Below, piece after piece: positions 10,063 to 45,454 of a stretch of DNA of 64,000 nucleotides. Below the pieces are notes generated by a model. That model was not told where the DNA came from. It made no database searches and worked only from the letters and a program-made list of their open reading frames with translations. Source of the stretch: Candidatus Doudnabacteria bacterium (GTDB taxonomy: Bacteria > Patescibacteriota > Doudnabacteria > UBA920 > O2-02-FULL-48-8); NCBI GenBank assembly GCA_039931165.1, contig JBDTSL010000002.1, positions 7,134 to 71,133 of the forward strand. Direction: 5' to 3'. A program made the position numbers and the translations under genes. Positions within the stretch are counted from its first letter, which is position 1; every line of letters begins with the position of its first letter.

Positions 10063-10167
10063 CACTATATGTAGTATTGACCACAGTTACTATAGCCCCA
10101 TATGTAGAAACCTGTCAAAGACCAAATTTTGGCTATATATTGCTCAAGCAAACTAGATGTAGTAAAA
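10063..10167. promoter_or_regulatory. Three candidate NrdR boxes upstream of the nrdR-nrdJ operon
   Basis: acactatatgtagtat (10063), ccccatatgtagaaac (10097) and actagatgtagtaaaa (10152) resemble the NrdR-box consensus acaCwAtaTaTwGtgt. Confidence 0.45.
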
Positions 10168-11505: not shown

Positions 11506-11518
11506 TTAATTACGTAAT
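11497..11518. repeat. Perfect AT-rich palindrome ttacgtaattaattacgtaa overlapping the ATP-grasp stop
   Basis: Perfect 20-bp palindrome; the same 17-mer aattaattacgtaatta recurs at 32555-32571 after topA. Confidence 0.6.
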
Positions 11519-11531
11519 TAAATATATATTG

Positions 11532-11560
11532 ATGTATATACAAGCGTATACATTTTTTTG
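11532..11560 (+). terminator. Intrinsic terminator for the ATP-grasp gene
   Basis: atgtatatac-aagc-gtatacat followed by ttttttt. Confidence 0.5.
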
Positions 11561-14171: not shown

Positions 14172-14263
14172 AGTCTCCTCCGATCAAAGAAACGAAAAGT
14201 GCTTAACGCAGTATAGCAAAAATTGGCAATAAAAAAAGGCGGAGACGAAAGCGTCAACGCCGG
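14172..14263 (-). promoter_or_regulatory. Island cassette A: intrinsic terminator plus extended -10 promoter (TGcTATACT) plus RBS
   Basis: Minus strand: ggcgttgacgctttcgtctccgcc-ttttttt-attgccaatttttgctatactgcgttaagc...ggaggagactGTG. Confidence 0.6.
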
Positions 14264-15293
14264 TTAAATAAATCCGTCCACTTGCCATTCCAGAGTTTGA
14301 CCGGCCATATATGGCCGGACTGCACCGATCATCTCCGGCACTTGCCAGGGCTTTCGGATCAAGACCAGTTTCTCCTTGTTCCTCGGCAACCGGTAGAAGT
14401 CAGCTCCGAAAACCGAAGTGAAGTTGGCCAGGGCATCCGGGTTCGCGTGAACCTGAAATAGCCTGACGAGCTCGGGCATGAGCACGGGAGCCGTGAAGCC
14501 GCCGTTCGCAACCTTGATCGGGCCTTTGTTCGCTGCCGGATGCGGCGCCGAGTCGCTGCCAAAAAATACATTCGGTGGACGACTCTCGTACACGAGCTCC
14601 ATGATCGCTTTTTGATCCGCAAACCCCTGGATCTCCGGCTTCATGATCAGCTGTGGTTCAAGTTCGCCGCCGCGAACGTCGTTCTTGTTGTGCTTCAGGT
14701 GCGCCAGAGTCACTGTGGCCGCGACTGGCCGGGTCTTCTCGTGCATGCGACGAACGAACTCTACGGTCTCGCGACAACTGATATGTTCGACGACGATCCT
14801 CAAAGTAGGAAAATCGTCGGAGAGTTGTTCGACCTTAGGCAAGCAGCTGCGCTCGCGCTGATCACAGTCTACGGCCGGATCCGCATCTTCGGCGTGGATC
14901 TGCAGAACCATATCGCAATCCTGCATCACTTCCAAGCAAGAATAAAGCGGACGAAAATCAACAAGTCCGCCTTTCGAACCGGTTGTAATTCCGGCATACA
15001 ACTTCAACCGGCCAAAGTACGACCGGGAAAATTCCTTGACCATGTATGGGGTCGTTGTTGGTATGAGTTTCGGCGAAACCAGAGTGGTGCAGCCGAATTT
15101 CTGAGACTGATCGTTGCATTCGTCATCATAGGCTTGCGCCTCTGCAACTGTTTCGATCGGGGGTACGTTACCCATGGCGATACATCGGCGGAATTGCTTT
15201 GCTGACCACGGAACCACGTCCTTCAGCATCTCGCCGAAACGAAAGTGGGCGTGCCAGTCGTCCGGCGCGGGAAGGGTAATTTCGTTTTTCACA
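14264..15293 (-). CDS. pyrC: Dihydroorotase, type II homodimeric class (PyrC-like), island gene 4
   Basis: DDWHAHFR zinc ligands, LKLYAG (carboxylated Lys), VVEHIS, FFGSDSAPH all conserved. The ORF-track start at 15340 runs through the promoter element; the likely start is GTG 15293 after ctggagg. Confidence 0.8.
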
Positions 15294-15340
15294 ACTGCCT
15301 CCAGTTTGGAAACCGAAAAGGGCTTAACGCAGTATAGCAA

Positions 15341-15399
15341 AAATTACCAATAAAAAAAGACGGTCACGCAAACGTGCCCGTCCAAACCAACTCATCCTC
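15341..15399 (-). promoter_or_regulatory. Island cassette B: intrinsic terminator plus extended -10 promoter
   Basis: Minus strand: gacgggcacg-tttg-cgtgaccgtc-ttttttt-attggtaatttttgctatactgcgttaagc. Confidence 0.6.
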
Positions 15400-30123: not shown

Positions 30124-30161
30124 CTTGACAAGTCCAATCTTTATGAATAACAATTAAAAAG

Positions 30162-30293
30162 TTCTCGTCTTCGCGAGCGACTGCTTTACTCAGAAGAATT
30201 AGTTTTGGCAGTCGCGTGGAGATCTCTTTATTAAGAGATTGCTTCGTCGCCCCATCAAGTCGGAGCTCCTCGCAAAGACGATATATTTTTATA
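30162..30293. repeat. MITE-like element, family B copy 1 (about 135 bp; terminal inverted repeats cgtcttcgcgag / ctcgcaaagacg) forming the 5' leader of topA
   Basis: Aligns along its length with 44441-44590 (gtcttYgcgagcgactgc, ttttggcag, agagattgcttcgtcg, tcctcgcaaagacg, tatatttttataa). Confidence 0.6.
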
Positions 30294-30301
30294 AACAGAT
30301 T

Positions 30302-32548
30302 ATGTCTAAATCCCTAGTAATAGTTGAGTCGCCAACCAAAGCCAAAACGATCAGCCGATTCCTCAAAGGCGAATACAAAGTGGAGGCTTCTTTTGGCCAT
30401 GTCCGCGATCTGCCTTCCAGCAAAATGGGAATTGATATTGAACATGATTTTGAGCCAACTTATGTAATTCCGCCGAAATCAAAAAAGCGCGTGGCTGATC
30501 TGAAAAAACTGGCCAAAGACGCTGCCGAAGTCATCCTGGCCACTGACGAGGACCGCGAAGGCGAGGCAATTGCCTGGCACTTGATCTCCGCTTTGGACCT
30601 GAAGAAAAATATCAAACGCATCGCCTTCCATGAGATCACCAAAACCGCGATTGATGAAGCGCTCTTAAATCCTCGTCAGCTCGATTTGCATCTGGTGGAT
30701 GCCCAGCAGGCCCGCCGCGTGCTCGACCGGCTGGTCGGCTATGAACTGTCCCCTTTCCTGTGGAAAAAAGTCAGGCGCGGCCTCTCCGCCGGCCGCGTGC
30801 AGTCGGTAGCGCTGCGCCTGATAGTTGAGCGTGAGCGGGAGGTCCAAAAATTCAAGCCTCAAGAATACTGGAGCATTGAGACCACTTTCAATAAGGATGG
30901 CCAATTTATTGGCAGGCTCGCCAAAATTGACGGCAAAACCCTGGACAAGCTGGGCATAAAAAATGAAGCTGCGGCGCATAAGATCGTGGCGGACCTGGCT
31001 AACCGAACGGCGGTTGTTTCCGAGGTTACAAAAAAGGAAGTCCGCAGAAACCCGGCTGCTCCTTTCACCACCTCCACACTCCAGCAGGAAGCCGCGCGAA
31101 AACTGGGATTTTCCGCCAAGCAAACAATGATGTACGCCCAACAGTTGTATGAAGGCGTGGAACTCGGCGAAGATAATGCCACCGGTTTGATCACCTACAT
31201 GCGTACGGATTCGGTCAACCTCGCGGACCAGGCGCTGCAATCCGCTCACGACGCCATTTTGGCAAAATACGGCAAGAATTACCTTTTGGACCAGCCTCGC
31301 AAATACGCTTCCAAGCAAAAAAACGCGCAGGAAGCCCACGAAGCCGTGCGCCCGACCGAGCTGACCCGCGATCCGGACAGCGTCAAGGATTTCTTGGATA
31401 AAAACCAGCTTCGCCTATATGATCTGATCTGGAAGCGCACGATCGCCACCCAAATGCCCGAAGCCGTGTTCGACGCCACCAGCGTAGATATCGATATGGC
31501 CGGCCAGACAAAGAAGTATATTTTCCGCGCCACGGGCCAGGTCATCAAATTCGACGGCTTCATGAAGGTCTATTTGGAAGGCACTGATGATGAGGAAGCG
31601 GAAGAAGAAGGGTTGCTGCCAGATCTGGCCAAAGGCGATCAGCCGAAAGTGCTGAAAACCATTCCCAAACAGCACTTTACCCAGCCGCCGCCCCGTTTTA
31701 CCGACGCTTCGTTGATCAAGGCCTTGGAAGAATTTGGCATCGGGCGCCCGTCAACTTACGCTCCGACCATTTCGACCATTCAGGAACGCGGTTATGTCAA
31801 CAAGATCGACAAAAAATTCCACCCTACCGATATCGGATTCGTCGTCAACGATATTTTGGTTGAACATTTCCCCGCGGTCGTAGACCTGCAATTCACGGCA
31901 AAAATGGAAGAAGAACTGGATGAGATCGCCGAAGGGACCAAGCAATGGGTGCCGGTCATCCGGGAATTCTATGAGCCCTTCCACAAAAATTTGAAGCTCA
32001 AAGAAACGGAAGTTGAAAAGCATGTGGAAATGCTGGAGGAAAAATGCCCTTTATCCGGCCATCCCCTACAGATCAAATTCGGCCGGTTCGGAAAATTCAT
32101 AGCCTGCTCCAATTATCCGGAATGCAAATACACCCGGCCTATGCCCGAGGAGCAAAAGATCATTGATGAAAATTCCGGCGTGATCTGCGACGTCTGCGGC
32201 CGGCCGATGGTGGTCAAATTTGGCAGATTTGGATCCTTCCTCGGCTGCTCCGGCTATCCTGAATGCAAGAACATAAAAAAAATCGAGAAAAGCACGGGCG
32301 TGGTCTGTCCGCTGTGCGGCGAAGGAGAATTGGTCGAGCGCCGGAGCAAACGCGGAATTTTTTATTCCTGCTCCAAATACCCTCAATGTAAATTCCTCCT
32401 CAACGGCAAACCTACGGGCGAAAAATGTCCGAAATCCGGAGATTTATTGATGGAAACGAAAGACGGCGGCCTGAAGTGTTCGAACAAAGAATGTGATTAT
32501 GCGCGGGAGCCGGTCATAGAGCCGGAAAAAAAAGAAGCCAAAATTTAA
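30302..32548 (+). CDS. topA: DNA topoisomerase I with C-terminal zinc ribbons
   Basis: TOPRIM N-terminus MSKSLVIVESPTKAKTISRFL; several C4 zinc ribbons at the C-terminus. The ORF-track start at 30239 runs through the repeat; the ATG at 30302 is preferred. Confidence 0.9.
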   Translation: MSKSLVIVESPTKAKTISRFLKGEYKVEASFGHVRDLPSSKMGIDIEHDFEPTYVIPPKSKKRVADLKKLAKDAAEVILATDEDREGEAIAWHLISALDLKKNIKRIAFHEITKTAIDEALLNPRQLDLHLVDAQQARRVLDRLVGYELSPFLWKKVRRGLSAGRVQSVALRLIVEREREVQKFKPQEYWSIETTFNKDGQFIGRLAKIDGKTLDKLGIKNEAAAHKIVADLANRTAVVSEVTKKEVRRNPAAPFTTSTLQQEAARKLGFSAKQTMMYAQQLYEGVELGEDNATGLITYMRTDSVNLADQALQSAHDAILAKYGKNYLLDQPRKYASKQKNAQEAHEAVRPTELTRDPDSVKDFLDKNQLRLYDLIWKRTIATQMPEAVFDATSVDIDMAGQTKKYIFRATGQVIKFDGFMKVYLEGTDDEEAEEEGLLPDLAKGDQPKVLKTIPKQHFTQPPPRFTDASLIKALEEFGIGRPSTYAPTISTIQERGYVNKIDKKFHPTDIGFVVNDILVEHFPAVVDLQFTAKMEEELDEIAEGTKQWVPVIREFYEPFHKNLKLKETEVEKHVEMLEEKCPLSGHPLQIKFGRFGKFIACSNYPECKYTRPMPEEQKIIDENSGVICDVCGRPMVVKFGRFGSFLGCSGYPECKNIKKIEKSTGVVCPLCGEGELVERRSKRGIFYSCSKYPQCKFLLNGKPTGEKCPKSGDLLMETKDGGLKCSNKECDYAREPVIEPEKKEAKI

Positions 32549-32552
32549 TATA

Positions 32553-32571
32553 TAATTAATTACGTAATTAA
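32553..32571. repeat. Palindrome taattaattacgtaattaa immediately after the topA stop
   Basis: Same 17-mer as at 11504-11520. Confidence 0.6.
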
Positions 32572-32577
32572 AAACAT

Positions 32578-32775
32578 ATGGAAACAACACAATCGGTTCC
32601 CAAAAGTCTGGAAGAGCTGAAAAAAGAACAAAGCGAGGTCGCCAGTCAGATCATGGGCCTGGATGCCAAAGGCGATAAGGGAGAAGCTTGGCAGAAGCTT
32701 AAAGCCCACCACGAAGAACTCACTGCCATGATCGAAGATATGCCGAACGAAGATGAGCTTCACAAAAAAACATAG
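32578..32775 (+). CDS. Small coiled-coil acidic protein (65 aa)
   Basis: ORF followed by an intrinsic terminator. Confidence 0.4.
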   Translation: METTQSVPKSLEELKKEQSEVASQIMGLDAKGDKGEAWQKLKAHHEELTAMIEDMPNEDELHKKT

Positions 32776-32787
32776 TTTTGCCAATAA

Positions 32788-32816
32788 AGCCGGGAGTGAT
32801 TCCCGGCTTTATGTTT
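32788..32816 (+). terminator. Intrinsic terminator
   Basis: agccggga-gtga-tcccggctt followed by tatgttt. Confidence 0.6.
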
Positions 32817-32881
32817 ACCAAAGAATCTTGGATCCCGGCTTTTCAAAAACGTTTTGAAAGTGTAAACTATAAATTATATAT

Positions 32882-33877
32882 ATGAAAATCTCATTTTTCG
32901 AAACCAAAGAAGAATATCAAAAAGTTCTGCAACCCTTGTTGCCGGATATGACCGTCGAATATTCAACAGAGCCTCTGTCACCGAAAAATGTCGCGAATTT
33001 TAAAGATAGCGAAGCCATAGCGATATTTGTGGGATCCAAAATCGACAAAAATATCATCGATTCCCTGCCGAAGCTGAAAGCCATTATGACCATGTCGACC
33101 GGTTATGACCATATCGATACCAAATATGCCAAACAAAAAGGGATCGCGGTATGCAATGTTGCCGGTTACGGCTCGGTCTGCGTGGCTGAATTTGCTTTTG
33201 GCCTGATTCTGTCCCTTTCGCGGAAGATCACCCAGGCCAACCGGCATCTGCGGGATACAAATGAATTCAGCTTTGAAAACCTGCAGGGATTCGATTTGAA
33301 CGGAAAAATTCTGGGCATTATCGGGACCGGCCGGATCGGCCAGCACGTCGCGCAAATCGCAAATGCGTTCGGGATGAAAATTTTGGGGTTTGACGCTAAG
33401 CCAAACCCGGCCTTGGCCGAAAAATTCCAATACGTCAGTCTGGATGAACTGTTAAAACAATCGGACGTCATCACCATTCACGTTCCCTATCTGCCCAGCA
33501 CTCATCACTTGATCAATAAAGACAACTTGCGGTTTGTCAAAAAAGGAGCGATATTGGTCAACACCGCGCGCGGGGAGATCATAGAAACGGAAGCATTAGT
33601 AGCGGTACTCACCGAAGGCCGGCTGGCGGGCGCGGGCTTGGATGTGCTGGAAGGCGAACACGAAATGAAAGACGAACTCCATATTTTAGCCAACCCTGCT
33701 TCCACCGTGGCGGATTTCAGAAAACTCTACGTCAATCACATGCTGATAGATTTCCCCCAGGTCATCGTGACTCCGCATATGGCTTTTTATTCCCGTGAAG
33801 CGCTGAATGAGATTATGGTCACGACCGCGGAGAACATAAAAAGTTTTCTGCAAGGAACGCCCAAAAATCTGGTTTAA
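32882..33877 (+). CDS. D-isomer-specific 2-hydroxyacid dehydrogenase (D-lactate/glycerate dehydrogenase-like)
   Basis: NAD-binding GIIGTGRIGQHVA and catalytic domain. Confidence 0.8.
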   Translation: MKISFFETKEEYQKVLQPLLPDMTVEYSTEPLSPKNVANFKDSEAIAIFVGSKIDKNIIDSLPKLKAIMTMSTGYDHIDTKYAKQKGIAVCNVAGYGSVCVAEFAFGLILSLSRKITQANRHLRDTNEFSFENLQGFDLNGKILGIIGTGRIGQHVAQIANAFGMKILGFDAKPNPALAEKFQYVSLDELLKQSDVITIHVPYLPSTHHLINKDNLRFVKKGAILVNTARGEIIETEALVAVLTEGRLAGAGLDVLEGEHEMKDELHILANPASTVADFRKLYVNHMLIDFPQVIVTPHMAFYSREALNEIMVTTAENIKSFLQGTPKNLV

Positions 33878-33879
33878 TC

Positions 33880-35148
33880 ATGGAATCACATACGATAAAA
33901 AATTACGACAAACTGGCCACAAGCAAACTCCGCCAAGATATTTTGGCCATGGGCGAGGCCGGTTTGACCGCCATCGATACGGCCAAGGTCATCGAAGCCC
34001 AAATTCAGCTCAAAGGCCGGACCCTGACCATAAGAAACAAGAGTTTCGACCTGGATAAATTCAAAAACATAAAAGTCATCGGATTCGGCAAGGCCTCCTG
34101 CAAAGCCGCCGAGGCATTAGAAAAAAAATTGGGCAAATTAATTGAGTCCGGAGTGGCCATTGGCCTGACTGCCACCGCATGCGAGATCATCAAAACTTAT
34201 GGAGGCACTCATCCCGAGCCTTCGTACCACAATGTTGATATCTCCCGGCAAATTTTTGAAATTGGCAAGACCGCTACAGCCGATGATCTGGTCATCGTCA
34301 TAGTGTCCGGAGGCGGGTCGTCTCTGCTCTGCTGGCCGAAAACAGAATGCGATCAGGGGCAGATCTTGTATCATCAGTTCCTGAAGACCGGCGGCACCAT
34401 AAAAGAGCTGAATACGGTGCGCAAGCACATTTCACTGCTGAAAGGCGGAGGTCTGGCAAAAATCCTTTACCCGGCAACCGTGATCGGCCTGATCTTTTCC
34501 GACATTCCGGGTGATCATTTCGACATGGTCGCTTCGGGGCCGACTTACAAAGACAGCAGCACCGTCAAAGACGCGGAGGCGATCATAGATAAATATAATC
34601 TGACGAAATTCGATCTGGTCGAAACCCCGAAGGACGACAAATATTTCGCCAATGTCTCCAATATCCACCTGGTGGACAATATTCAGGCTCTTGAAGGCAT
34701 AAAAAAATGCGCGCAAGATCTGGGTTACAATCCCGTAGTACTTTCAAACGAAGTCTACGAACAAGCTCCTGTGGTTGTCAAAAAAATGCGTGACCTGCTG
34801 GATAATTACGATCTGATCTTGGCCGGCGGGGAACCGGCGATGAAGGTCGCAGAAGGAGGAAATGGCGGCCGCAATCTTTATGTCGCCATGATCGCTCTGG
34901 ATTTGATCGGGCCGGACGAATGTTTTTTGGCTCTGGCTTCCGACGGCATGGATAATTCGGACGCGGCCGGAGCAGTGGTAGATGCTAAAACCAAAAAAAC
35001 TCTGAATGATCTGAAAATCAACCTGGCTGATTCCATCGCCAAATTCAACGGATATAAATTATTCGAACAATTGGGCGAACTGGTTTTCACCGGGCCGACC
35101 GAGGCCAACGTTTCGGACTTATTCATTTTGGTAAAAAATAAGCTCTAA
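33880..35148 (+). CDS. Glycerate kinase (MOFRL / DUF4147 family)
   Basis: DUF4147 N-domain plus MOFRL C-domain similarity; adjacent to the 2-hydroxyacid dehydrogenase. Confidence 0.65.
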   Translation: MESHTIKNYDKLATSKLRQDILAMGEAGLTAIDTAKVIEAQIQLKGRTLTIRNKSFDLDKFKNIKVIGFGKASCKAAEALEKKLGKLIESGVAIGLTATACEIIKTYGGTHPEPSYHNVDISRQIFEIGKTATADDLVIVIVSGGGSSLLCWPKTECDQGQILYHQFLKTGGTIKELNTVRKHISLLKGGGLAKILYPATVIGLIFSDIPGDHFDMVASGPTYKDSSTVKDAEAIIDKYNLTKFDLVETPKDDKYFANVSNIHLVDNIQALEGIKKCAQDLGYNPVVLSNEVYEQAPVVVKKMRDLLDNYDLILAGGEPAMKVAEGGNGGRNLYVAMIALDLIGPDECFLALASDGMDNSDAAGAVVDAKTKKTLNDLKINLADSIAKFNGYKLFEQLGELVFTGPTEANVSDLFILVKNKL

Positions 35149-35150
35149 AA

Positions 35151-35178
35151 TTTAGTCATGAGCATGCTCATGACTAAA
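35151..35178. terminator. Bidirectional terminator; perfect 28-bp palindrome
   Basis: tttagtcatgagcatgctcatgactaaa between the convergent glycerate kinase and dus genes. Confidence 0.6.
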
Positions 35179-36157
35179 CAAAGATTTTTTGCGCGATCAG
35201 GAACTTCTCGACCAGCTCTTCAGCTTCTTGGGAAGTCTCGGCTTCCATCAGATTCATCCGCAGTTCTTTAGCGCCGTCGAACCCATTGACGTAGGCTTTA
35301 TAATGTTTTTTCATGACGGCAAAATCTTTTATTCCGGCAAATTTCCGTTCAAATAGTTTTGTGTGTTCTATCATGGCTAGCATGCGCTTGTGGACCGGAA
35401 CTTTTTCTATCGAGGTTTCGCGGTTAAACAGCCACGGGTTGCCGAAAATCCCCCGGCCGATCATGACGCCATCGGCGCCGGTTTCCAGCACTTTCTGTTC
35501 CGCGTCGGCAAGACTTAAAACATCACCGTTTCCGAGGATCAATGGTCTGGTTTCTTGATTTCCTGATCTCAAAATTTCTACAATCTTTGAAATCAACTCC
35601 CAATGCGCCGGCACTAAAGATAATTCTTTCACAGTCCGCAAATGGGCCGTTATCGCGGCCAACTCCTGTGCGGCCAGAAAACCAAACCATTCCTCAAGCA
35701 TGGGCTTGCTAACCCCAATTCTGGTCTTCACCGAAACAGGCAATTCAGGGGCGCCTTCTTTGGTCGCCAAGATAATTTCCCGGGCCAGTTCAGGATTTTT
35801 GATCAAAGCTCCGCCTGCTCCCTGTTTCAGAACCGCCCTGTCCGGACAGCCCATATTGATATCTATGCCGTCAAAGCCCAACTGCTTTATCATTTGTGCG
35901 ACTTTATAAAAATTCTCGGGCTTAGCGCCAAAAATCTGCGCCACGATCGGATGCTCATTTTCTGAATGCCAAAAATCAACCAACAATTTTTCTTTTCCGG
36001 CCGAGCAAAGTCCATCCACTGAGACAAATTCCGTCCATGTCACGTCCGGCTTGCCGTAATTACTGATCAAAAATCGAAAAGCGGCATCCGTGACATTGGC
36101 CATAGGCGCCAAAACAAAAATCGGTTTTTTAAGTTTGCTCCAGAAGCCTTTAATCAT
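35174..36157 (-). CDS. dus: tRNA-dihydrouridine synthase
   Basis: Dus-family TIM barrel (FVLAPMANVTD...DINMGCP). Confidence 0.85.
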   Translation of the reverse strand: MIKGFWSKLKKPIFVLAPMANVTDAAFRFLISNYGKPDVTWTEFVSVDGLCSAGKEKLLVDFWHSENEHPIVAQIFGAKPENFYKVAQMIKQLGFDGIDINMGCPDRAVLKQGAGGALIKNPELAREIILATKEGAPELPVSVKTRIGVSKPMLEEWFGFLAAQELAAITAHLRTVKELSLVPAHWELISKIVEILRSGNQETRPLILGNGDVLSLADAEQKVLETGADGVMIGRGIFGNPWLFNRETSIEKVPVHKRMLAMIEHTKLFERKFAGIKDFAVMKKHYKAYVNGFDGAKELRMNLMEAETSQEAEELVEKFLIAQKIFV

Positions 36158-37388
36158 TTTTCATGAAGATTTTATTTTCAAACAGCCAATAAGCCAAAGC
36201 CTTATACAGCGGCAATACCGAAAAAAAGTACTGCAAATCAGCAAACTTTCTGATCACCCATCCCCAAAATCCGGCAACAATCAAATTCGGGCTGTACAAT
36301 ACCGCGAACTTCCCACTGGCGGGAATTATATATCTGATCGGTCCAGGAATATAGCTTGCCGCGGGCTTGCCTCTGATCTGGCGGTAAATATTTCTGGCCA
36401 CCGTTTTCGCCTGATTTATCGCCTCTTGCGCAGTTTGGGGAACTGATTTTTTCGTTTTCGGATCAATGAAGCCCAAATTATCACCCGCTATAAATATGCG
36501 CGGATAATTTTCAAGATTCAAGACGGAACGGGTGAGCGTGCGATCTTTACTATCCTGGACGAGCTCGCAATCAAGAGGCAGCCGGACCGACCTGACCCCG
36601 CCGGTCCAGATCAATAAATCGCAATCAAGCTTTTCTTTCATATTCAACACTACATGATCACCGGCGGCCTCCGTGATCCGGGTCGCAAACTTCGATTCAA
36701 CTCCCATTTGGATCATACGGTTGCCGACTATTGCCGAAACCTTCTCGGAAAGCCCGGGCAAAAACCCGGTGGCTGCTTCCACCAGAGTGATTTTGAAATT
36801 GTCAGGATTTTTTTCGTGTTGCCGGCATTCTTGCTTCAATAGATTATGCAATTCTCCGGCAAACTCCGTACCCGCAAAACCCGCGCCCCCGACCACGATC
36901 CGGGCTTCGTCTTTTTTTGTCACGATTTCCTCGATCCGGTTTCTGATCATCATTGCATCCTCCAAAGTTTTGAGAGTGAATCCGAATTTATCCAGATTCT
37001 TGATATCATAAAAATCGGCAACGCTACCCATCGCGATCACCAGATATTCAAAAGGGACAATTCTCGCGTCAGTGATAACCCTGCCGGATTTGGTATCAAT
37101 TCTGTCGATATAGGCTTCCAGTACTTTAACCCTGGTTTTACCGAAAATGTCTGAAAAAGGAATAGCCACGGTCCGTTTTACTTTTTTTGCACCCACAAAT
37201 GCGTGTTCAGTGGTGGCGGCTTCATATAACCCGGACTGATAAGTCTGGTAATTCTTGCGGTCAATCAAAATAATCTCGTAATCCCGGTTATCATGCAGAT
37301 AGTTGTCCAGATCAAGAGCCGCCCGCACCCCGGCAAACCCGCCGCCTGCGATGACAATATTCTTTTTTTCTTGGTTGGTGGATTTCAT
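36150..37388 (-). CDS. ndh: Type II NADH dehydrogenase / FAD-dependent pyridine nucleotide-disulfide oxidoreductase
   Basis: Two Rossmann dinucleotide motifs (IVIAGGGFAG and IVVGGAGFAG). Confidence 0.75.
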   Translation of the reverse strand: MKSTNQEKKNIVIAGGGFAGVRAALDLDNYLHDNRDYEIILIDRKNYQTYQSGLYEAATTEHAFVGAKKVKRTVAIPFSDIFGKTRVKVLEAYIDRIDTKSGRVITDARIVPFEYLVIAMGSVADFYDIKNLDKFGFTLKTLEDAMMIRNRIEEIVTKKDEARIVVGGAGFAGTEFAGELHNLLKQECRQHEKNPDNFKITLVEAATGFLPGLSEKVSAIVGNRMIQMGVESKFATRITEAAGDHVVLNMKEKLDCDLLIWTGGVRSVRLPLDCELVQDSKDRTLTRSVLNLENYPRIFIAGDNLGFIDPKTKKSVPQTAQEAINQAKTVARNIYRQIRGKPAASYIPGPIRYIIPASGKFAVLYSPNLIVAGFWGWVIRKFADLQYFFSVLPLYKALAYWLFENKIFMKND

Positions 37389-37390
37389 AC

Positions 37391-37432
37391 AAAATCAAAA
37401 AACAGCATCTTAATTATACCATAGACGCTGTT
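37391..37432 (-). terminator. Intrinsic terminator of the rluB operon, with an extended -10 (TGgTATAAT) for ndh embedded in its loop
   Basis: Minus strand: aacagc-gtctatggtataattaagat-gctgtt followed by ttttgatttt. Confidence 0.55.
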
Positions 37433-37520
37433 TCTTCTTTTTAGGATCTTTGTTCTCGTTTTAGTCTGCAAGATTATGATGTATGGAATCTATCCTGTCA
37501 ACGTATCTCTAATCTGCGGA

Positions 37521-37745
37521 TTATTCTTCAATTTTCTTCAAATCCACTTCAATCTGTTTTAATTCGTTCACCAGCTCTCTGGCTCGCGTATTTTTTATCT
37601 CATCCATCTGAATTAAAGGCGATATCCGATCCAATTCTTCCTGTAGTTGAGATCTAAGTGACTGCAATCGCTTCTTTTTCAATTCAATATCTTCCATTAA
37701 TCCTCTTCCTTCAGGTACTGCTCTTTCGGTTGATTCAGGTCCCAT
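37521..37745 (-). CDS. Small coiled-coil protein (74 aa)
   Basis: ORF abutting rluB; heptad-like charged sequence. Confidence 0.4.
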   Translation of the reverse strand: MGPESTERAVPEGRGLMEDIELKKKRLQSLRSQLQEELDRISPLIQMDEIKNTRARELVNELKQIEVDLKKIEE

Positions 37746-38428
37746 TAAATAATCTCCTTACTGCCAATAATCTTACATTGCCCTAATTGTAAATCATTCA
37801 GGGTTAATTTGCCAATCCGGATGCGCTTAAGGTTTCTGACGGTATAACCCAACGAACCGAACATTTTGCGCACCTGGCGGTTCATTCCTTCGTGGATGGT
37901 GATGTAGACAGTGGTTCCGCTGATCTTAAGCTTGGCGGGCGAGGTCTTTTTGCCGTCGATAATCATGCCATTTTTGATTTTTTCTATTCGTCCCGCCGAT
38001 AATTCCTTGTCCAAAATCACTTCATATTCTTTTTCGTGCTCTTTTGATGGATGGGTCAGGAGCTGGGTCAGTCCGCCGTCATTGGTAAAGATCAAAAGCC
38101 CTTCGGTATTAAAATCAAGGCGGCCGACTGGCCAGACAACATTCCGCAAATTTAGGGGCAATAATTCGTACACGGTTTTACGGTGCTCCGGATCATGCCG
38201 GGTCGTCATATAGCGTTTGGGTTTGTTCAAAACCAGGTAAACCAGTTTTTGCGATCCGATTTTTTTGCCGTTGACCTCAACTTTATCTTTTTCGGGATCG
38301 ATCTTCGTTCCCAGTTCGGTCACGACCTTGCCGTTTACTTTCACTTTCCTGTTCACGATCAAATCTTCGGCATGCCGGCGGGAAGCCACTCCTGCTTGTG
38401 AAATAAATTTTTGTAATCGTTCCAGCAT
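37745..38428 (-). CDS. rluB: rRNA pseudouridine synthase (RluB/RsuA family) with S4 domain
   Basis: N-terminal S4 domain plus the GRLD catalytic motif. Confidence 0.85.
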   Translation of the reverse strand: MLERLQKFISQAGVASRRHAEDLIVNRKVKVNGKVVTELGTKIDPEKDKVEVNGKKIGSQKLVYLVLNKPKRYMTTRHDPEHRKTVYELLPLNLRNVVWPVGRLDFNTEGLLIFTNDGGLTQLLTHPSKEHEKEYEVILDKELSAGRIEKIKNGMIIDGKKTSPAKLKISGTTVYITIHEGMNRQVRKMFGSLGYTVRNLKRIRIGKLTLNDLQLGQCKIIGSKEII

Positions 38429-38907
38429 CAGCTTGATCCGATCAAATAGCCGGCCAGGAAAACCAAGGCACCCCCGACCACCACTTGGAGTATCGAAACA
38501 AAAAAGTTCATTTTCATATACCTGTAGCGGATAAACGCGATGACAAACAACTCAACTCCCACGATCAAATATGCCCAAAACAAAGCGCTGTTAAAATTAT
38601 GCGACAAGAACGGCAAAGTATGGAAAATTCCTCCCAAAAAAGTCATCAGGCCGGTGATGAATCCCCGCATCACCGGATGCCCTCTTCCGGTCAGTTCGCC
38701 CGTATCGGATAGCCCTTCGGCAAAAGCCATGCTGATGGCAGCGCCAGCGGCGGCCGAGAAGCCGATCAAAAATGCGATGTGGTTGCTGCGGGTGGCGAAT
38801 GCCGCGGCGAACAGCGGCGCCAGAGTGGACACCGAGCCGTCCATCAGCCCCAGCAAACCGGGTTGAATTATGCGGCGCAAAAAATGCGCTTCTTGTTCAG
38901 TGTGCAT
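38428..38907 (-). CDS. VIT1/CCC1-family (short form) membrane protein
   Basis: 159 aa with TM helices; VIT-family similarity. Confidence 0.55.
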   Translation of the reverse strand: MHTEQEAHFLRRIIQPGLLGLMDGSVSTLAPLFAAAFATRSNHIAFLIGFSAAAGAAISMAFAEGLSDTGELTGRGHPVMRGFITGLMTFLGGIFHTLPFLSHNFNSALFWAYLIVGVELFVIAFIRYRYMKMNFFVSILQVVVGGALVFLAGYLIGSS

Positions 38908-38977
38908 TAAAATCTTACTTTGAATTACATTAATTTAAAGTTATACTTAAACGGTCTCGGGTTTTGAAGGAGGAAAC

Positions 38978-39250
38978 ATGGAAATCTTAATTGCTGCCTT
39001 GGTAGTGAGCACTGGCATCGTGGCTTGTGTCAAACGTTTCAGGGAAGCGCAAAGAGAACGCTTCGACAACATCGGTCCCACCGTCATGATCCAAGCGATA
39101 GCGCTGGCAGTAAGTTTGGTCTGCCTGGTTTTTGCAGGCGAGTCGGTAATTCTTGCTGTCTGGTCAATCGGTTTTTCAGGACTGGTCATCAGCAGCTACG
39201 TGGTGCATCTCTTCGTACTCGCGGTTAGCAGTGCCAACCCGCCCTGTTAG
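38978..39250 (+). CDS. Small membrane protein (90 aa)
   Basis: RBS ggaggaaac; two TM helices; intrinsic terminator follows. Confidence 0.55.
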   Translation: MEILIAALVVSTGIVACVKRFREAQRERFDNIGPTVMIQAIALAVSLVCLVFAGESVILAVWSIGFSGLVISSYVVHLFVLAVSSANPPC

Positions 39251-39268
39251 TTTTTGAGAACCTTCATG

Positions 39269-39300
39269 CCGCGGTGAACTACACCTTGCGGCTTTTTTTT
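39269..39300 (+). terminator. Intrinsic terminator
   Basis: gccgc-ggtgaactacacctt-gcggc followed by ttttttttt. Confidence 0.6.
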
Positions 39301-39375
39301 TGGTGGGTGTGGCGCGGATCGAACGCGCGACCCTCTGCTTAAAAGGCAGGTGCTCTACCACTGAGCTACACACCC
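39301..39375 (-). tRNA. tRNA-Lys (anticodon TTT), CCA encoded
   Basis: Manual cloverleaf: acceptor GGGTGTG/CACACCC, anticodon loop CTTTTAA, T-arm GCGCG-TTCGATC-CGCGC. Confidence 0.8.
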
Positions 39376-39522
39376 AAAAATTGCCAAGCAATTTTTGCCT
39401 CGAGCCTGCCGAGAGGCTCAGACAATAAAAGCCTACTTATTATACAGATTTTGGGAGATTTTTCAACCTTCTCGACACCGCTCGAGGTTGACCCTGAGCG
39501 ATAGCCGAACGGGTCAAGACTT

Positions 39523-39640
39523 GAACCCAGTATATCAACTTTTGATAATGGCCTTCAAAAATTACTTTAGCAGTGATCTAAATTCACTGTTCACGGCCAT
39601 TTGAACCGCAAAAGCATCAAAGTTGTATTACTGGGTGAAC
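39523..39640. repeat. MITE-like element, family A copy 2, supplying the last codons and stop of dnaJ
   Basis: acccagtatatcaacttttgataatgg...ggccatt...atcaaagttgtattactgggtgaac; about 85% identical to the arms of 935-1094. Confidence 0.55.
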
Positions 39641-40767
39641 TTTCCCCAAAAACCTTCGTCCACATCTACGGCTTCGCCTTTTTCTCCGGCCATTTGCTTG
39701 AACAATTCTTTTTCTTTCTTGGTAAGCTTCGTCGGAGTCACAACATGGACTGTCACAAAATGATCTCCCCGTCCCGAACCGTTGAGGATGGGCACGCCCT
39801 TGCCTTTCAGCCGGAAAACTTTTTCGGTCTGGGTTCCGGCCGGGATTTTCATTTTTGCTGTGCCATCCACCGTCATCACCTCAATCGTGGTGCCCAGCGC
39901 CGCCTGATAAAAGCTAACCGGGAGCTCTGAAAAAACATTGCTGCCTTCCCTCTTAAATCCGGATTTTTCGGAAACATGGATCCGCAAATAAAGGTCGCCG
40001 AAATTTGATCCTTTGTAGCCCACTTCTCCTTCGTTGGCCACACGAATCCTCTGCCCTTCCTCAATCCCCGCCGGAATTTTTACCTTTAAAGTTTTTCTTG
40101 CCCTGACTGAACCCGATCCTTTACAGACCGAACACGCCCGCTCCGGGACTTTGCCCGTGCCATCGCACTCATCGCACGTTGCGGTTGATGCGATGGAACC
40201 GAATATGGTGCGGCGGTTGGTCCGGATCTGGCCTGTGCCATGGCATTTCGGGCAGGTCAGAATCTTGCTCCCGGGCTCTCCTCCCGAACCTTTACAATGC
40301 GCGCAGGTGTCGGTTTTCTCCAAGGTTATTTCTTTTTCTACCCCAAAAACAGCCTCATCGAAAGTCAGATAAATTTCCATCTCCAGATCCACTCCGCGTT
40401 CGCGCCGGGCTCGCCTGGTGGCGGTAGGCCCGCCAAAAATATCCGAGAACATATCAAAGGCATCGTCAAATTCAATGCCACCATTAAATCCCTGAGTGAA
40501 ATTGGAAAAATCAAACCCCTCGAAACCGGTCCCTGTCGCCCCCGCTCCCGCCCTATTCTGGTAATTCGAGCCAAACCGGTCGAACTGCTGACGCTTTTCG
40601 GGATTGGACAGAACCTGATAAGCCTCATTTATTTCCTTAAACTTGGCCTCATTGCCTTTGTCCTTGTCCGGATGATGCTCATGGGCCAATTTCCGGTACG
40701 CCTTCTTGATCTCTTCCGGACTGGCATTTTTTGCCACACCGAGTGTGGAATAATAATCAGCTGCCAT
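39628..40767 (-). CDS. dnaJ: Chaperone DnaJ
   Basis: J-domain with HPD, G/F region, four CxxCxGxG zinc fingers, C-terminal domain. Confidence 0.95.
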   Translation of the reverse strand: MAADYYSTLGVAKNASPEEIKKAYRKLAHEHHPDKDKGNEAKFKEINEAYQVLSNPEKRQQFDRFGSNYQNRAGAGATGTGFEGFDFSNFTQGFNGGIEFDDAFDMFSDIFGGPTATRRARRERGVDLEMEIYLTFDEAVFGVEKEITLEKTDTCAHCKGSGGEPGSKILTCPKCHGTGQIRTNRRTIFGSIASTATCDECDGTGKVPERACSVCKGSGSVRARKTLKVKIPAGIEEGQRIRVANEGEVGYKGSNFGDLYLRIHVSEKSGFKREGSNVFSELPVSFYQAALGTTIEVMTVDGTAKMKIPAGTQTEKVFRLKGKGVPILNGSGRGDHFVTVHVVTPTKLTKKEKELFKQMAGEKGEAVDVDEGFWGKFTQ

Positions 40768-40770
40768 AAA

Positions 40771-41664
40771 TTATACGGTTAGTCTCTCCACTTCAACCTG
40801 GATTTTGGCTAATTTGAAAAACTTCACCGCCAATAATATCCTGAACAATACCCAGCATATCAATTGAGTGGTCCAATTGAGCAAAAACGCGAATGTCAGC
40901 AGCAAGCCGGTAACAATGATCGCGAAAACAAACGGGAAATATCCCTCGTAATTGAGCGAGGCCTGACGTAGCTTGTCGGTGGCGATCTGGGCGAAGACGT
41001 CAGCCAGGGACTGATTGCCGGACACAGCCTTGATCTGAAACTGTTTAAAAAAATCGGCGCGGTATTGTCTGATGACCGAAGGATTTGTGGTCTTGGCCTG
41101 GTTTGATAAAAATTGGTCAAGCGTCTGGTTAAAATCAACCCCGGCCGGCAGGTCCTTGGTAAAATATGGCACGGTTTTGGCCGCGGCCTGTCCCAGACGC
41201 TGATAATAAGCATCGGGGTTAGCCAGAAAATCAGCTTGCGTATTGTAGTAGACGATGCACCCGATCAAAAGCAAAATGGCGTAGATCATGACCGAGACGC
41301 TGTTACTGATCACTCGCCGCATAGAAAAATCCACGGAGTTTTTTTCTTCGGACCTGATGCGCCATTCGAACAAAAACATTAAGATCAGAAAAAGCCCGCC
41401 GCCCAAAATCACTGCCGGGTCTTTGGGCATGACCAGAACATAACCGGCGATGGTCAAAATTTCCACAACCAGAGCAGTCCGGCGGCTCTTATTGGTCAGA
41501 TAAAAAAAGGTCAAAAACGAAATAGCCGTGATCGATGCAAGCACTGCCCAAAGCCAAAAAATCGGGGACTTGCCGTCAATAATTCCCTGCCGCAACAAAA
41601 ACCAGTCAGCTGTCCATAGAACCACCGAAACCAGGCCCAAAACATCAACTTTAATATTTTTCAT
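40771..41664 (-). CDS. Polytopic membrane protein, hypothetical
   Basis: Multiple TM helices. Start taken at the internal Met (MKNIKV) to avoid overlap with the upstream ORF. Confidence 0.5.
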   Translation of the reverse strand: MKNIKVDVLGLVSVVLWTADWFLLRQGIIDGKSPIFWLWAVLASITAISFLTFFYLTNKSRRTALVVEILTIAGYVLVMPKDPAVILGGGLFLILMFLFEWRIRSEEKNSVDFSMRRVISNSVSVMIYAILLLIGCIVYYNTQADFLANPDAYYQRLGQAAAKTVPYFTKDLPAGVDFNQTLDQFLSNQAKTTNPSVIRQYRADFFKQFQIKAVSGNQSLADVFAQIATDKLRQASLNYEGYFPFVFAIIVTGLLLTFAFLLNWTTQLICWVLFRILLAVKFFKLAKIQVEVERLTV

Positions 41665-41671
41665 TTGTTTT

Positions 41672-41998
41672 TTATTTACTGCCGAACCCGAATGGCCGGT
41701 CAGAGCTTGACGTTTGGCCTCCGGCTTGGGGTTTCTGCTCCTCAATTTTCCCGAACTGTTCTTCGTATTTTTTCAGATTATCGTTGATCGCCGCAGCCAT
41801 CCGCTTGAAATGCCCGGGACTGGTGATGACTTTCGCCGTGGCGATGCCTTGTCCCGGCGGCGGAAAAAACGCGAGGTTGATAAAATCCAAAACAAATTCT
41901 TCCTTGGAATGCGACACGAACATATTGTTGGCATAAGAGCCTTTCAGGACATCATCGGGAATTTTTATATTGATGTTTTGACCTTGTTGTTGATCCAT
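41672..41998 (-). CDS. DUF3467-like small protein
   Basis: 108-aa ORF between dnaK and dnaJ. Confidence 0.5.
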   Translation of the reverse strand: MDQQQGQNINIKIPDDVLKGSYANNMFVSHSKEEFVLDFINLAFFPPPGQGIATAKVITSPGHFKRMAAAINDNLKKYEEQFGKIEEQKPQAGGQTSSSDRPFGFGSK

Positions 41999-42007
41999 AT
42001 TGATTAT

Positions 42008-42086
42008 CTACGAAAGTACGAATTTTTCGAAATTACGAAGCGGGCTAACTCTTTTCGTAATTTCGTTTTCTTTCGTACTTTCGTAG
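42008..42086. other. 79-bp near-perfect nested palindrome between dnaK and the DUF3467 gene
   Basis: ctacgaaagtacgaa-ttttt-cgaaattacgaa-gcgggctaactc-ttttcgtaatttcg-ttttc-ttcgtactttcgtag. Confidence 0.6.
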
Positions 42087-42094
42087 CAAGTTAA

Positions 42095-43954
42095 TTATTT
42101 CTTAGTTTCATCGACAACTTCGGCATCCACTGGACCCTGTTTGGCATCCGGCTCAGTCTTTTCTGTTCCCTGGGCGCTGGCGCCTGGCCCCTGCTCTTTA
42201 TACATAGCCGCGCCGACTTTTTGGATGGCAGCAGATAACTCATCCATGGCTTTTTTTATCGGATCCAATTCCGGTTTATCTTTGATCGCTTTAAGGGCGT
42301 CAATCTTGGTTTGGACTTCTTTTTTATCGGCTTCGGAAGCCTTTCCCTCCGCGTCTTTCAGCGTTCGTTCTGAAACGGAGATCAAAGTGTCGGCGTTATT
42401 CCGAGTCTCAATCACTTCCTTATTCTTGCGGTCTTCCTCGGCATGAGCTTCCGCTTCCTTTTTCATGCGCTCCACTTCTTCTTTTGACAGGTTGGATGAA
42501 CCGGTCACGGTAATGTTCTGGGATTTTCCGGTCCCTTTGTCTTTGGCCGTAACTTTCAGGATGCCGTTGGCATCAATGTCGAAAGTCACTTCTATCTGGG
42601 GCACGCCCCGGGGCGCAGGCGGCAAGCCGTCCAAGTGGAAGCTGCCGAGCGACTTGTTATCTTTGGCGAATGGCCTCTCGCCCTGCACGATATTTATTTC
42701 CACAGAGGTCTGGTTGTCCGCCGCGGTTGAGAAAGTCTGGCTTTTTGAGGTCGGAATCGTGGTGTTCCGTTCGATGAGAGGCGTGGCTACCCCGCCCAGA
42801 GTTTCCAGGCCCAGGGTCAGCGGTGTCACATCCAGCAGAAGAATTTCTTTTCCGGCAACATCGCCGGACAGCACACCGGCCTGCACTGCGGCGCCCTTAG
42901 CCACGGCTTCCATCGGATCAATGCCGCGCTCCACCTGCTTGCCGATGTATTCTTCCACGAATTTGGCAACTACCGGCATGCGGGTCGGGCCTCCGATCAA
43001 AATAATTTTGGCGATGTCGGCAGGAGTGAGTTTTGCGTCTGTCAGAGCCTGCTCGACCGGCTGCTTCATCCGCGCCACGATCGGTTTAACCAAATCTTCC
43101 AGTTTCGAGCGTGTCAATTTCATGTTTAGATGTTTTGGACCGGCAGCGTCCGCGGAGATGAACGGCAGGTTCAGATCGGTTTCGAGAGTGGTGGATAGTT
43201 CAATTTTGGCTTTTTCCACGGCCTCGCGCACGCGGTTCATGGCCATTTTGTCTTGTGTCAGATCCAAGCCGGTTTCGCGTTTGAATTCGGACGCCACAAA
43301 ATCAATCAGAGTCTGGTCCATGTCCTTGCCGCCGAGCTGGGTGTCGCCTGACGTCGACAAAACCTCGAAAGTCGCCTGTCCTCCCGCTTCGCCGAAATCC
43401 ATGATCGTCACATCCAGCGTACCGCCGCCCAGATCGAACACCAGGATCTTCTGGTCTTTGCCCGATTTATCCAGGCCGTAGGCGAAAGCCGCGGCAGTCG
43501 GCTCATTGATCACGCGCACCACATCCAAGCCCGCGATTACGCCGGCATTTTTCGTGGCCGTTCTTTGGCTGTCGTCAAAGTATGCGGGAACCGTGATCAC
43601 AGCCTTGGCCACAGGCTCGCCCAAAAACGCTTCCGCGTCTTTTTTGATCTTTTGCAGCAAAAACGCGGAAAGCTGCTCCGGCGTATACTCCTTGCCAATA
43701 AGTTTATACTTGAAATTGGTGCCCATTTTGCGTTTAAATTCAAACGCTGTGCCTTCCGGATTGGTCACAGCCTGCCGTCTGGCCGGCTCGCCGACCAGAA
43801 GCTGACCGTCCTTCGTGAACGCGACATATGATGGGAAGGCTTTGCCTGACATGGTCTGGCCTTCGGCCGACGGAATGATCACCGGCTTCCCGGCTTCCAT
43901 CACCGAGGCGGCGCTATTTGATGTTCCCAAATCTATTCCTATAATTTTTGGCAT
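42095..43954 (-). CDS. dnaK: Chaperone DnaK (Hsp70)
   Basis: [23 protein letters not shown] and other motifs; 619 aa. Confidence 0.95.
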
Positions 43955-43955
43955 A

Positions 43956-44426
43956 CTATTTATCCTTTCCCACTCCGACTTTCGCCGGAATAATTACTTT
44001 ATTGTTCAATAAAAATCCGGGCTGAATTTCTTTCACGATCTTGCCTGGCTCCGATCCCTCAATTTGTTCAACCGCTTCATGCCTGGTCGGATCAAACTTT
44101 TCGCCAACTGTCTTGATCTTCACCACTCCCAGTTCTTCCATGCTTTTTTCCAGTTGCTGTATAGTGGCGCGCAATCCCGTCAGCCAATCTTTATACTTTT
44201 CGTCTTCCGGCGCGTAAAACAGAACCTGTTCCAGGCTCTGCAAACTCGGCATCAATCTGATGACCGCCATTTCTTTGGCGAATTCAAACAGTTCTTTCGA
44301 TTCCGCTTCCTTGCGCTTCCGGTAGTTCTCAAAATCCGCCGCGGTGCGCTTCCAGTTCGCGGTCAGTTCCGCGATCTGTTCTTCGGGACTGACTATTTTC
44401 GGTTCGTCTTGTTGCTGATCTGTCAT
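43956..44426 (-). CDS. grpE: Nucleotide exchange factor GrpE
   Basis: GrpE-family similarity; operon with dnaK. Confidence 0.85.
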
Positions 44427-44440
44427 ATTATTTCTTGCCT

Positions 44441-44590
44441 CCTCTAGCGTCTTTGCGAGGAGGCCGATTAATTAAGCCTTCGTCTTGCGGCCGACGAAGC
44501 AATCTCTTTCCTGTGAAAAGATTGCTTCGCTCCTGCCAAAATTTAACCCCTAAGCAGCAGTCGCTCGCAAAGACATTATATTTTTATAAG
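44441..44590. repeat. MITE-like element, family B copy 2. It lies between hrcA and grpE, supplying the grpE leader and RBS and overlapping the hrcA stop.
   Basis: The reverse complement aligns with 30162-30293 over about 130 bp. Confidence 0.6.
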
Positions 44591-45319: not shown

Positions 45320-45346
45320 TTAGCACTATTAGAACTTTGGTGCTAA
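45320..45346. promoter_or_regulatory. CIRCE operator upstream of hrcA
   Basis: ttagcacta-ttagaactt-tggtgctaa against the consensus TTAGCACTC-N9-GAGTGCTAA. Confidence 0.6.
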
Positions 45347-45454
45347 CCTTATTTAATATTTTAATATTAGCACTCCACCTTGTCAAGTGCCAGCTCAACA
45401 AAAAAGCCGCTCTGCCAGCTGGCGGATAAGCGGCTCTTTTGTTGCCTCCGGTTT

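Follow-up and report, generated by a model that had tools for sequence, protein, structure and literature searches.

A CGTC-type palindromic repeat scattered across phyla, probably inserted as doublets, precedes topA and grpE in a Candidatus Doudnabacteria genome

Two related segments of about 135 bp stand before topA and grpE in a 64-kb stretch of a Candidatus Doudnabacteria genome (contig JBDTSL010000002.1; this whole stretch is called the window below), and they raise the question of whether two stress-related genes share a dedicated regulatory leader or carry copies of an inserted repeat. An initial reading made from the letters of the window (the sequence-only reading) had proposed a family resembling miniature inverted-repeat transposable elements (MITEs) that forms structured 5' leaders and may act like an RNA thermometer. 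The analysis reported here favours insertion. At a probability of roughly three in four, the topA and grpE segments are inserted doublets of the repetitive extragenic palindromic (REP) type, a third copy in the window is a singleton of the same kind, and these repeats are of the CGTC type and are co-transcribed with their neighbours. Because the repeat was found scattered over about 20 phyla and was missing at the same spot in relatives, it is better read as an inserted selfish element than as a dedicated heat-shock regulator.

Both segments proved to be real and related, although the elements proper are somewhat shorter than had been drawn (coordinates of all features are collected in Table 1). 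Both lie at the positions given for them, and each has terminal inverted repeats. The count of two copies had to be extended by one, since a search with the terminal repeats recovered a single unit, and this unit reveals the basic module of the family: YGTC-(A/T)TTGC-GAG-(variable self-complementary segment)-CGAA-GCAAT-CTC. Each supposed 135-bp MITE is two such modules head to head. The terminal inverted repeats of each dimer are the left frames of its two units, and the central hairpin common to both dimers (atctctt..aagagat) is made by the unit tails. When the window was scanned with the frame, four perfect units were returned (7404-7429 and 44449-44502 on the plus strand, 30239-30279 and 44522-44574 on the minus strand), compared with about one weak match in block-shuffled sequence. 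Extra matches at 9963-10065 and 34527-34554 had four mismatches each and were rejected as background. The left half of the copy before topA (copy A) is a fifth, decayed unit, missed by frame scans, in which the right frame reads CGTGGAGATCTC instead of CGAAGCAATCTC; the 64-kb window thus holds five units. Tags of the window units read CGTC, CGTC, CGTC and TGTC, and all units are of the TTTGC/GCAAT variant, with inner hairpins longer than the mini-hairpin described below (one is GCC-GTA-GGC).

Copy A and the copy before grpE (copy B) are quasi-palindromic and can be aligned in either orientation. Their inner hairpins are related, and homology of the non-palindromic inner sequence is seen only when A(+) is set against B(-) (72% identity over 89 nt, E = 8e-5). 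With respect to the gene that each precedes (topA on the plus strand, grpE on the minus strand), the two dimers therefore share one intrinsic orientation. Copy A lies between the stop of the upstream gene (30100) and the topA ATG (30302); copy B ends 21 nt before the grpE ATG (44426-44424, minus strand). Direct repeats were not found at the ends of either copy. On the plus strand both dimers are adjoined by the 13-mer TATATTTTTATAA, which has no other occurrence in the 64 kb; taken in their intrinsic orientation, the two dimers carry it at opposite ends. Beside copy B it is hrcA coding sequence, i.e. host DNA, and it may represent a preferred insertion context.

The distribution of the family was examined with the pattern GAGATTGCTTCG-N(5-35)-CTCGCAAAGAC, which specifies 23 bases; in 596 Gb, some 0.5 matches would arise by chance (own arithmetic). 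In a one-genome-per-species collection, at least 119 stretches matched, spanning about 20 phylum-level lineages as assigned by record title (Chloroflexota, Nitrospirota, Bacteroidota, Cloacimonadota, Omnitrophota, Desulfobacterota, Alpha- and Gammaproteobacteria, Acidobacteriota, Bacillota, Ignavibacteriota, Marinimicrobia, Latescibacterota, Zixibacteria, WOR-3, Deferribacterota and Melainabacteria, with Parcubacteria, Saccharibacteria and another Doudnabacteria among the Patescibacteria). With a slightly relaxed pattern, at least 120 IMG/VR viral contigs matched, some with 3-7 copies. The canonical CGTCATTGCGAGGAGCGAAGCGACGAAGCAATC (ATTGC) unit was found 100% identical on the Methylosinus trichosporium OB3b megaplasmid (NZ_CP023738.1) and also occurred on Methylocystis, Halomonas and Calothrix plasmids (NZ_CP034088.1, NZ_CP040452.1, NZ_CP011383.1), all from cultured bacteria, at up to 100% identity and always unannotated. 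Neighbours of the family members were unrelated genes, and some copies lay inside coding sequences. Searches of the window against Rfam returned only three tRNAs at the gathering threshold, and at E up to 10 the sole hit was at chance level (E = 0.76, a Streptococcus pyogenes antisense RNA). A full-text literature search with the frame words gave unrelated primer hits only; the words were absent from the paper in which CGTC-tagged REPs were defined and its supplements (Di Nocera, De Gregorio and Rocco, 2013, BMC Genomics 14:522; PMC3733652) and from the RepRanger paper, a REP survey of 2025.

The hrcA-grpE junction was compared with that of seven relatives whose HrcA is 84-89% identical to that of the source genome. 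In six of the seven, hrcA and grpE are spaced by -11 to +5 nt and the repeat is absent: the genes overlap by 11 nt in L205 and are 1 nt apart in L206 (HrcA 89% in each), and the gap is 2-5 nt in L121, L122, L123 and P0010's contig (84-85%). The seventh, L120 (87%), has a 150-nt spacer that holds an unrelated, multi-hairpin element of about 150 nt (L120:10705-10855) with ends like CTACCTCCCC and GAGGGGTAGAG; no second copy of it was found in the loci examined, and a grpE Shine-Dalgarno-like region lies downstream of this element too. In 82 kb of DNA from six relatives, 0 units were found, compared with five in the 64-kb window. The T-rich stretch beside copy B belongs to hrcA as its native 3' end (..LIKI-stop) and can be recognised in orthologues without the element. 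Copy B therefore adjoins the stop codon and, contrary to the earlier claim, does not overlap it. Nor does the element supply the ribosome binding site of grpE, since the GGAGG lies outside the terminal repeat.

The topA site was compared at phylum scale, with metagenome relatives (TopA 55-71% identity) rather than sister genomes. No unit was found upstream of topA in 80 Patescibacteria loci, and no bona fide unit anywhere in the 808 kb around these 80 topA genes. Copy A starts about 10 nt downstream of a promoter-like site and, as judged from this arrangement, is probably the topA 5' leader, acquired by insertion. Copy B lies inside the CIRCE (controlling inverted repeat of chaperone expression)-controlled hrcA-grpE operon and would be expected to be transcribed with grpE. 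The earlier description of the segments as 5' leaders is therefore retained in so far as both copies are placed for co-transcription with the downstream gene, while a dedicated stress-gene leader is unsupported.

Units of the family were then characterized in bulk. The 194 strict units mostly have C (89) or T (89) before GTC, otherwise G (12) or A (4). Stem position 1 was T in 142 units and A in 48; ATTGC/GCAAT accordingly occurred in 48/194 and TTTGC/GCAAT in 142/194, the latter variant having a T-T mismatch at stem position 1 and a pair at position 2. The outer stem measures 4-5 bp. Beyond it come an asymmetric internal loop, GAG/CGAA, which is conserved, and an inner segment of 5-79 nt (modes 7 and 13 nt) that forms a hypervariable second hairpin; the tail reads CTC or CCC, in a count biased by the inclusion of the tail in the search pattern. 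The commonest inner segments were GCGAAGC (50), GCGTAGC (17), GCGCAGC (16) and GCGGAGC (13), and GCGN(N)AGC was present in 151 of 392 inner segments (loci L001-L119 and L207-L326), compared with 7 after shuffling. GCGNAGC has been described as "extraordinarily stable mini-hairpin DNA", with two G-C pairs, a sheared G-A pair and a melting temperature of 76.5 C (PMC13037366). The folding energy of the inner segments gave a modest signal relative to shuffles (62% more stable); sheared G-A pairs are probably not credited by nearest-neighbour rules. Hammerhead and kink-turn readings of GAG/CGAA were discarded by inspection, as the core nucleotides do not fit. Related frames with another stem word were seen in the flanks of L080, L113 and L086 (GTCATCCTGAG..CGAAGGATC, GTCACCCTGAA..GAAGGGT and the classical CGTC-1-like GGATTCCCGCCTTCGCGGGAATGACG); these resemble compensatory variants of the stem within a single superfamily.

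In genomes, units occurred singly in 101 of 146 clusters. Multi-unit arrangements had the tags outside in 31 cases, inside in 7 and in tandem in 4, the corresponding counts in viral contigs being 23, 1 and 9. Unit clusters lay between co-directional genes (71), between convergent (14) or divergent (10) genes, or inside open reading frames (ORFs; 16); the median distance was 88 nt for the upstream stop and 152 nt for the downstream start. Single units were oriented with versus against transcription at 25:24 in genomes and 30:29 in viral contigs. The association with gene starts that had been suggested was thus not borne out: units are nearer to upstream stops than to downstream starts and have no preferred orientation. 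Copies scattered without positional bias relative to genes had been named in the sequence-only reading as part of what would speak against a regulatory role, and the distribution found comes close to this, across other genomes rather than in the source genome. Among the at least 119 genome loci, no recurrent neighbouring gene family or transposase was found, and no target-site consensus or duplication beyond Y at position -1. Neighbouring single units were co-oriented at 40:7 overall (viral contigs 29:4, e.g. loci L222, L243, L209 and L325; genomes 11:3, e.g. loci L015 and L034), with examples in both orientations relative to co-directional genes and a ratio of about 50:50 relative to flanking genes across contigs. 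A strand bias set at the level of the contig, and perhaps tied to replication, is suggested by this pattern. Since co-orientation holds per contig and independently of transcription, it is what strand-specific, replication-linked insertion of single-stranded DNA (ssDNA) would be expected to produce.

Table 1. Repeat units and associated features of the window (position 1 is the first letter of the window; strand as reported).
Feature	Positions	Strand	Remarks
Third copy, single unit CGTCTTTGCGAG-CCGTAGG-CGAAGCAATCTC	7403..7433	+	found by terminal-repeat search
Promoter-like site upstream of topA, TTGACA-18-AACAAT	30125..30154	+	10/12 positions match; consensus match only
Copy A, head-to-head dimer of two units, CGTC tags outside	30166..30280	.	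115 nt
Copy A left unit, degenerate	30166..30226	+	tag/left frame CGTCTTCGCGAG and inner hairpin CGACTGC..GCAGTCG intact
Copy A right unit, frame intact	30235..30280	-	minus-strand reading CGTCTTTGCGAG..CGAAGCAATCTC
Copy A terminal inverted repeats	30166-30177; 30269-30280		CGTCTTCGCGAG; CTCGCAAAGACG
13-mer flank TATATTTTTATAA	30282..30294	+	next to copy A; identical 13-mer at 44577-44589 adjoins copy B
grpE Shine-Dalgarno GGAGG	44438..44442	-	outside terminal repeat; complementary to CCUCC of adjacent unit
Copy B, head-to-head dimer	44448..44575	.	128 nt; directly adjoins hrcA stop codon (44576-44578)
Copy B plus-strand unit	44448..44506	+	inner hairpin GGCCG..CGGCC
Copy B minus-strand unit	44518..44575	-	inner hairpin CGACTGC..GGCAG, homologous to that of copy A left unit
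Copy B terminal inverted repeats	44448-44459; 44564-44575		CGTCTTTGCGAG; CTCGCAAAGACA
CIRCE-like operator	45320..45346	.	3 mismatches to consensus; zero matches in shuffles; context, outside repeat
hrcA promoter-like site TTGACA-17-TAAAAT	45358-45386	-	just upstream of CIRCE-like operator

Some copies were found in frame within genes. The singleton of the window lies in a class II ribonucleotide reductase (RNR) gene (6762-9452, minus strand), where it is read as ..EKEIASPTARKDE... Alignment with the Thermotoga RNR reaches residue 643 of the window protein, and the unit, at about residues 672-684, falls in a hypervariable linker between domains, ahead of the C-terminal one. Both the length and the sequence of this linker differ freely among 12 homologues, none of which has the EIAS..ARKD peptide. 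A whole head-to-head doublet lies in frame in uvrC of Candidatus Doudnabacteria RIFCSPHIGHO2_12_FULL_48_16 (L037:3436-3476; ..SSLQATAKQSQNEIASSSRLIGTPRKDR..), and a unit was found in frame in a C39-peptidase ABC transporter of a Bacteroidetes metagenome-assembled genome. The uvrC doublet echoes the published tendency of CGTC REPs toward excision-repair genes.

In the mechanism that we propose, the repeats would be non-autonomous DNA, selfish or presumably neutral, that entered this Doudnabacteria lineage after its split from the relatives with 89%-identical HrcA. They would settle at tolerant sites, namely immediately behind stop codons, in the short spacers between genes, and within flexible protein linkers where the frame is kept. 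By analogy with REP/RAYT and IS200/IS605, spread may proceed as ssDNA hairpins via an enzyme acting in trans. Co-transcription with topA and grpE would add stable hairpins to these mRNAs, and any effect on expression would be a by-product, with no conserved regulatory design.

A leader hairpin that melts on heat shock and frees the ribosome binding site of grpE or topA would suit two genes that are stress-responsive in model bacteria, and the grpE Shine-Dalgarno can indeed pair with the element. Both leaders were folded in silico at 20-50 C, that of grpE as a 244-nt RNA in mRNA sense. The GGAGG of grpE was predicted to be paired with CCUCC of the adjacent unit at every temperature, with P(unpaired) of 0.09, 0.03, 0.02, 0.01 and 0.02 at 20, 30, 37, 42 and 50 C; there is a slight fall with heat and no rise, and the predicted temperature behaviour is the opposite of that of a thermometer. 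The grpE helix is a G+C-rich 10-bp stem, whereas known thermometers (ROSE, fourU) use weak, mismatch-rich helices. In the topA leader the doublet is predicted to fold independently; this copy excludes the AUG and any Shine-Dalgarno, and for the region from -15 to -5 the predictions already give 54-86% unpaired. Rfam gave no match, and the element is absent from orthologous sites, including the junction at which L120 has its unrelated element. Heat shock control of the hrcA-grpE operon is, moreover, already supplied by the CIRCE-like site upstream of hrcA, which the sequence-only reading had reported and which proved to be real. Thermosensing by these leaders, as proposed there, is scarcely credible. 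A second CIRCE-like match (3 mismatches) was seen at 45367-45393, upstream of the first and overlapping the hrcA promoter-like site. A classical MITE, that is, an internally deleted insertion sequence (IS) with IS-type terminal repeats, a parent transposase and target-site duplications, would account for 12-bp terminal inverted repeats, a size of about 115-128 bp and several non-coding copies. These "terminal repeats" are, however, the frames of independent units that mostly occur singly, and identical 11-12-nt frames surround unrelated inner sequences in about 20 phyla; neither direct repeats at the ends of copies A and B nor a linked transposase among the at least 119 loci was found. Such an origin is very improbable. 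What holds of the MITE-like description is a non-autonomous palindromic repeat, with the architecture of a REP doublet and without target-site duplication or IS-type ends.

More plausible than either of these, yet still unlikely, is that an inserted doublet has been exapted and now tunes the expression of its neighbour after transcription. Copy B may uncouple grpE translation from hrcA, sequester the Shine-Dalgarno, or serve as an RNase processing or stability site through which the repressor and chaperone parts of the operon may reach different mRNA levels, and copy A may buffer the topA leader. In Bacillus subtilis, processing of the dnaK operon transcript takes place between hrcA and grpE. 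Both dimers are placed where they should be transcribed and, as single strands, are predicted to fold very stably, copy A into a four-way hairpin structure (minimum free energy -49.4 kcal/mol, z = -4.2 versus shuffles) and copy B at -56.1 kcal/mol (z = -3.6). The spacing of hrcA and grpE has widened to 149 nt from at most 5 nt, the pairing predicted for the GGAGG of grpE points the same way, and the L120 lineage independently carries a different hairpin element at this junction. REPs have also been proposed as RNA stability elements (PMC3733652). However, neither site is conserved among relatives, the family has no orientation or gene-start bias, and sites beside stop codons are the usual neutral landing place of REPs; the effect itself is a prediction, for which nearest-neighbour folding of a 244-nt RNA is weak evidence.

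Several points weigh against insertion of ordinary CGTC-type REPs. The evidence for mobility is presence or absence among relatives only, the copy count of the source genome covers 64 kb only, and the gene calls behind the positional statistics are crude ORF calls. The unit also departs from known CGTC REPs in its stem (4-5 bp with a GAG/CGAA loop here, 8-9 bp there) and in its "loop", which here is a second hairpin of 5-80 nt and there has 4-5 nt. Conservation of the frame over about 20 phyla is extreme for REPs, which are mostly clade-specific, and leaves room for a conserved function or a recognising protein. That two different hairpin elements occupy the hrcA-grpE junction in two lineages, and that both dimers adjoin the TATATTTTTATAA flank, could reflect selection or site-specificity. 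Taken together, the near-invariant frame, the mini-hairpin core, the co-orientation, the common flank and the double occupation of the junction fit site- and strand-selective ssDNA insertion by a putative enzyme. It is conceivable, if rather doubtful, that YGTC-WTTGC-GAG..CGAA-GCAAT-CTC around GCGNAGC is the recognition module of a very widespread ssDNA enzyme, a suggestion based on a sequence that hardly changes over about 20 phyla and viral contigs and on the transcription-independent co-orientation of singletons (40:7). If true, it would answer what mobilises CGTC-type REPs, and the gene-poor Doudnabacteria, Parcubacteria and Saccharibacteria among the carriers would sharply narrow the candidate enzyme genes.

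Other repeats were seen in the window. An identical 36-nt double hairpin, AATTCCGCCAAAGGCGGATCCGCCTCCGGCGGAAAA, is present at 53558-53593 and 60738-60773, 7 kb apart, and looks like another small repeat family of the source genome. A 92-nt direct repeat (76% identity; 14163-14254 and 15284-15375, 1.1 kb apart) may represent a leader or promoter region that was duplicated. A palindromic, AT-rich motif (type TTACGTAATTAATTACGTAATTAA) occurs in tandem at 11483-11544 and again at 32545-32582, right after the topA stop codon.

For annotation, the likeness of the topA and grpE leaders should not be recorded as a stress regulon signal or a riboswitch-like element, and short "proteins" or extra residues encoded by the repeat (..EIAS..ARKD..) are repeat-derived. 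A family whose 23-nt frame hardly varies over about 20 phyla, whose core is the most stable DNA mini-hairpin known, and which occurs in ultra-small candidate phyla radiation genomes and viral contigs offers a good handle on the spread of transposase-less CGTC REPs. Cultured hosts such as Methylosinus trichosporium OB3b open it to experiment.

The closest known relatives are the CGTC-tagged REPs. These were defined by a CGTC tag (TGTC and CCTC also being accepted) and a stem opening with A-T, A-T, with a stem of 8-9 bp, a loop of 4-5 nt and a 3-nt unpaired tail of consensus CCA; among their dimers, tags outside predominate, tags inside are rare and tandem arrangements are negligible (PMC3733652). 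They have been reported from 5 phyla, none of them in the candidate phyla radiation, with in-frame intragenic copies, often in replication and repair genes, and no dedicated transposase; the superfamily includes Neisseria dRS3 and Rickettsia RPE-4 and RPE-6, and the means of spread was left open by the defining paper (PMC3733652). The family described here shares the unpaired CGTC/TGTC tag, the predominance of tags-outside dimers, the lack of a linked transposase, the occurrence in many phyla, the position of most copies after stop codons and the in-frame copies in replication and repair genes (here RNR and uvrC). Two features are ambiguous: a short 3-nt tail is present but reads CTC or CCC rather than CCA, and the A-T, A-T stem start is found in the ATTGC variant, whereas the commoner TTTGC variant has the T-T mismatch at position 1. 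Like the Rickettsia palindromic elements (RPEs), it comprises short palindromic repeats lying in frame at tolerant sites of genes; RPE-1, in contrast, is about 100-150 bp long and confined to Rickettsia, while the copy seen here in a gene of the window is a 31-nt single unit in an inter-domain linker.

REPINs are REP doublets that form hairpins and are moved by RAYT transposases, to which the bacterial interspersed mosaic elements (BIMEs) of Escherichia coli are related; the movement of such doublets by RAYT was reportedly described by Bertels and Rainey in 2011. In genomes with RAYT-associated REPs, these have a GTAG tag and flank the RAYT gene, which encodes a Y1 HUH transposase. The resemblance to REPINs and BIMEs lies in two inverted units with a short spacer that give one long hairpin, in the doublet as the commoner multi-unit form, and in a non-autonomous, intergenic nature. 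The present family differs in its CGTC tag, in having no transposase-like recurrent neighbour among at least 119 loci, and in a frame that is near-identical across phyla, where RAYT-associated REPs are clade-specific. Its commonest inner segments (GCGAAGC, GCGTAGC, GCGCAGC, GCGGAGC) are exactly the mini-hairpin DNA GCGNAGC / GCGNNAGC, reportedly described by Hirao and colleagues; that mini-hairpin, however, is a structural motif of phage replication origins and promoters and not a repeat family. With ROSE and fourU thermometers and CIRCE/HrcA control, the grpE copy has in common its position in a heat-shock gene leader and the pairing of the Shine-Dalgarno, and it differs from the thermometers in lacking predicted melting, site conservation and an Rfam match. 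We file the family as a new variant or family of CGTC-type REPs, belonging to that superfamily or adjacent to it.

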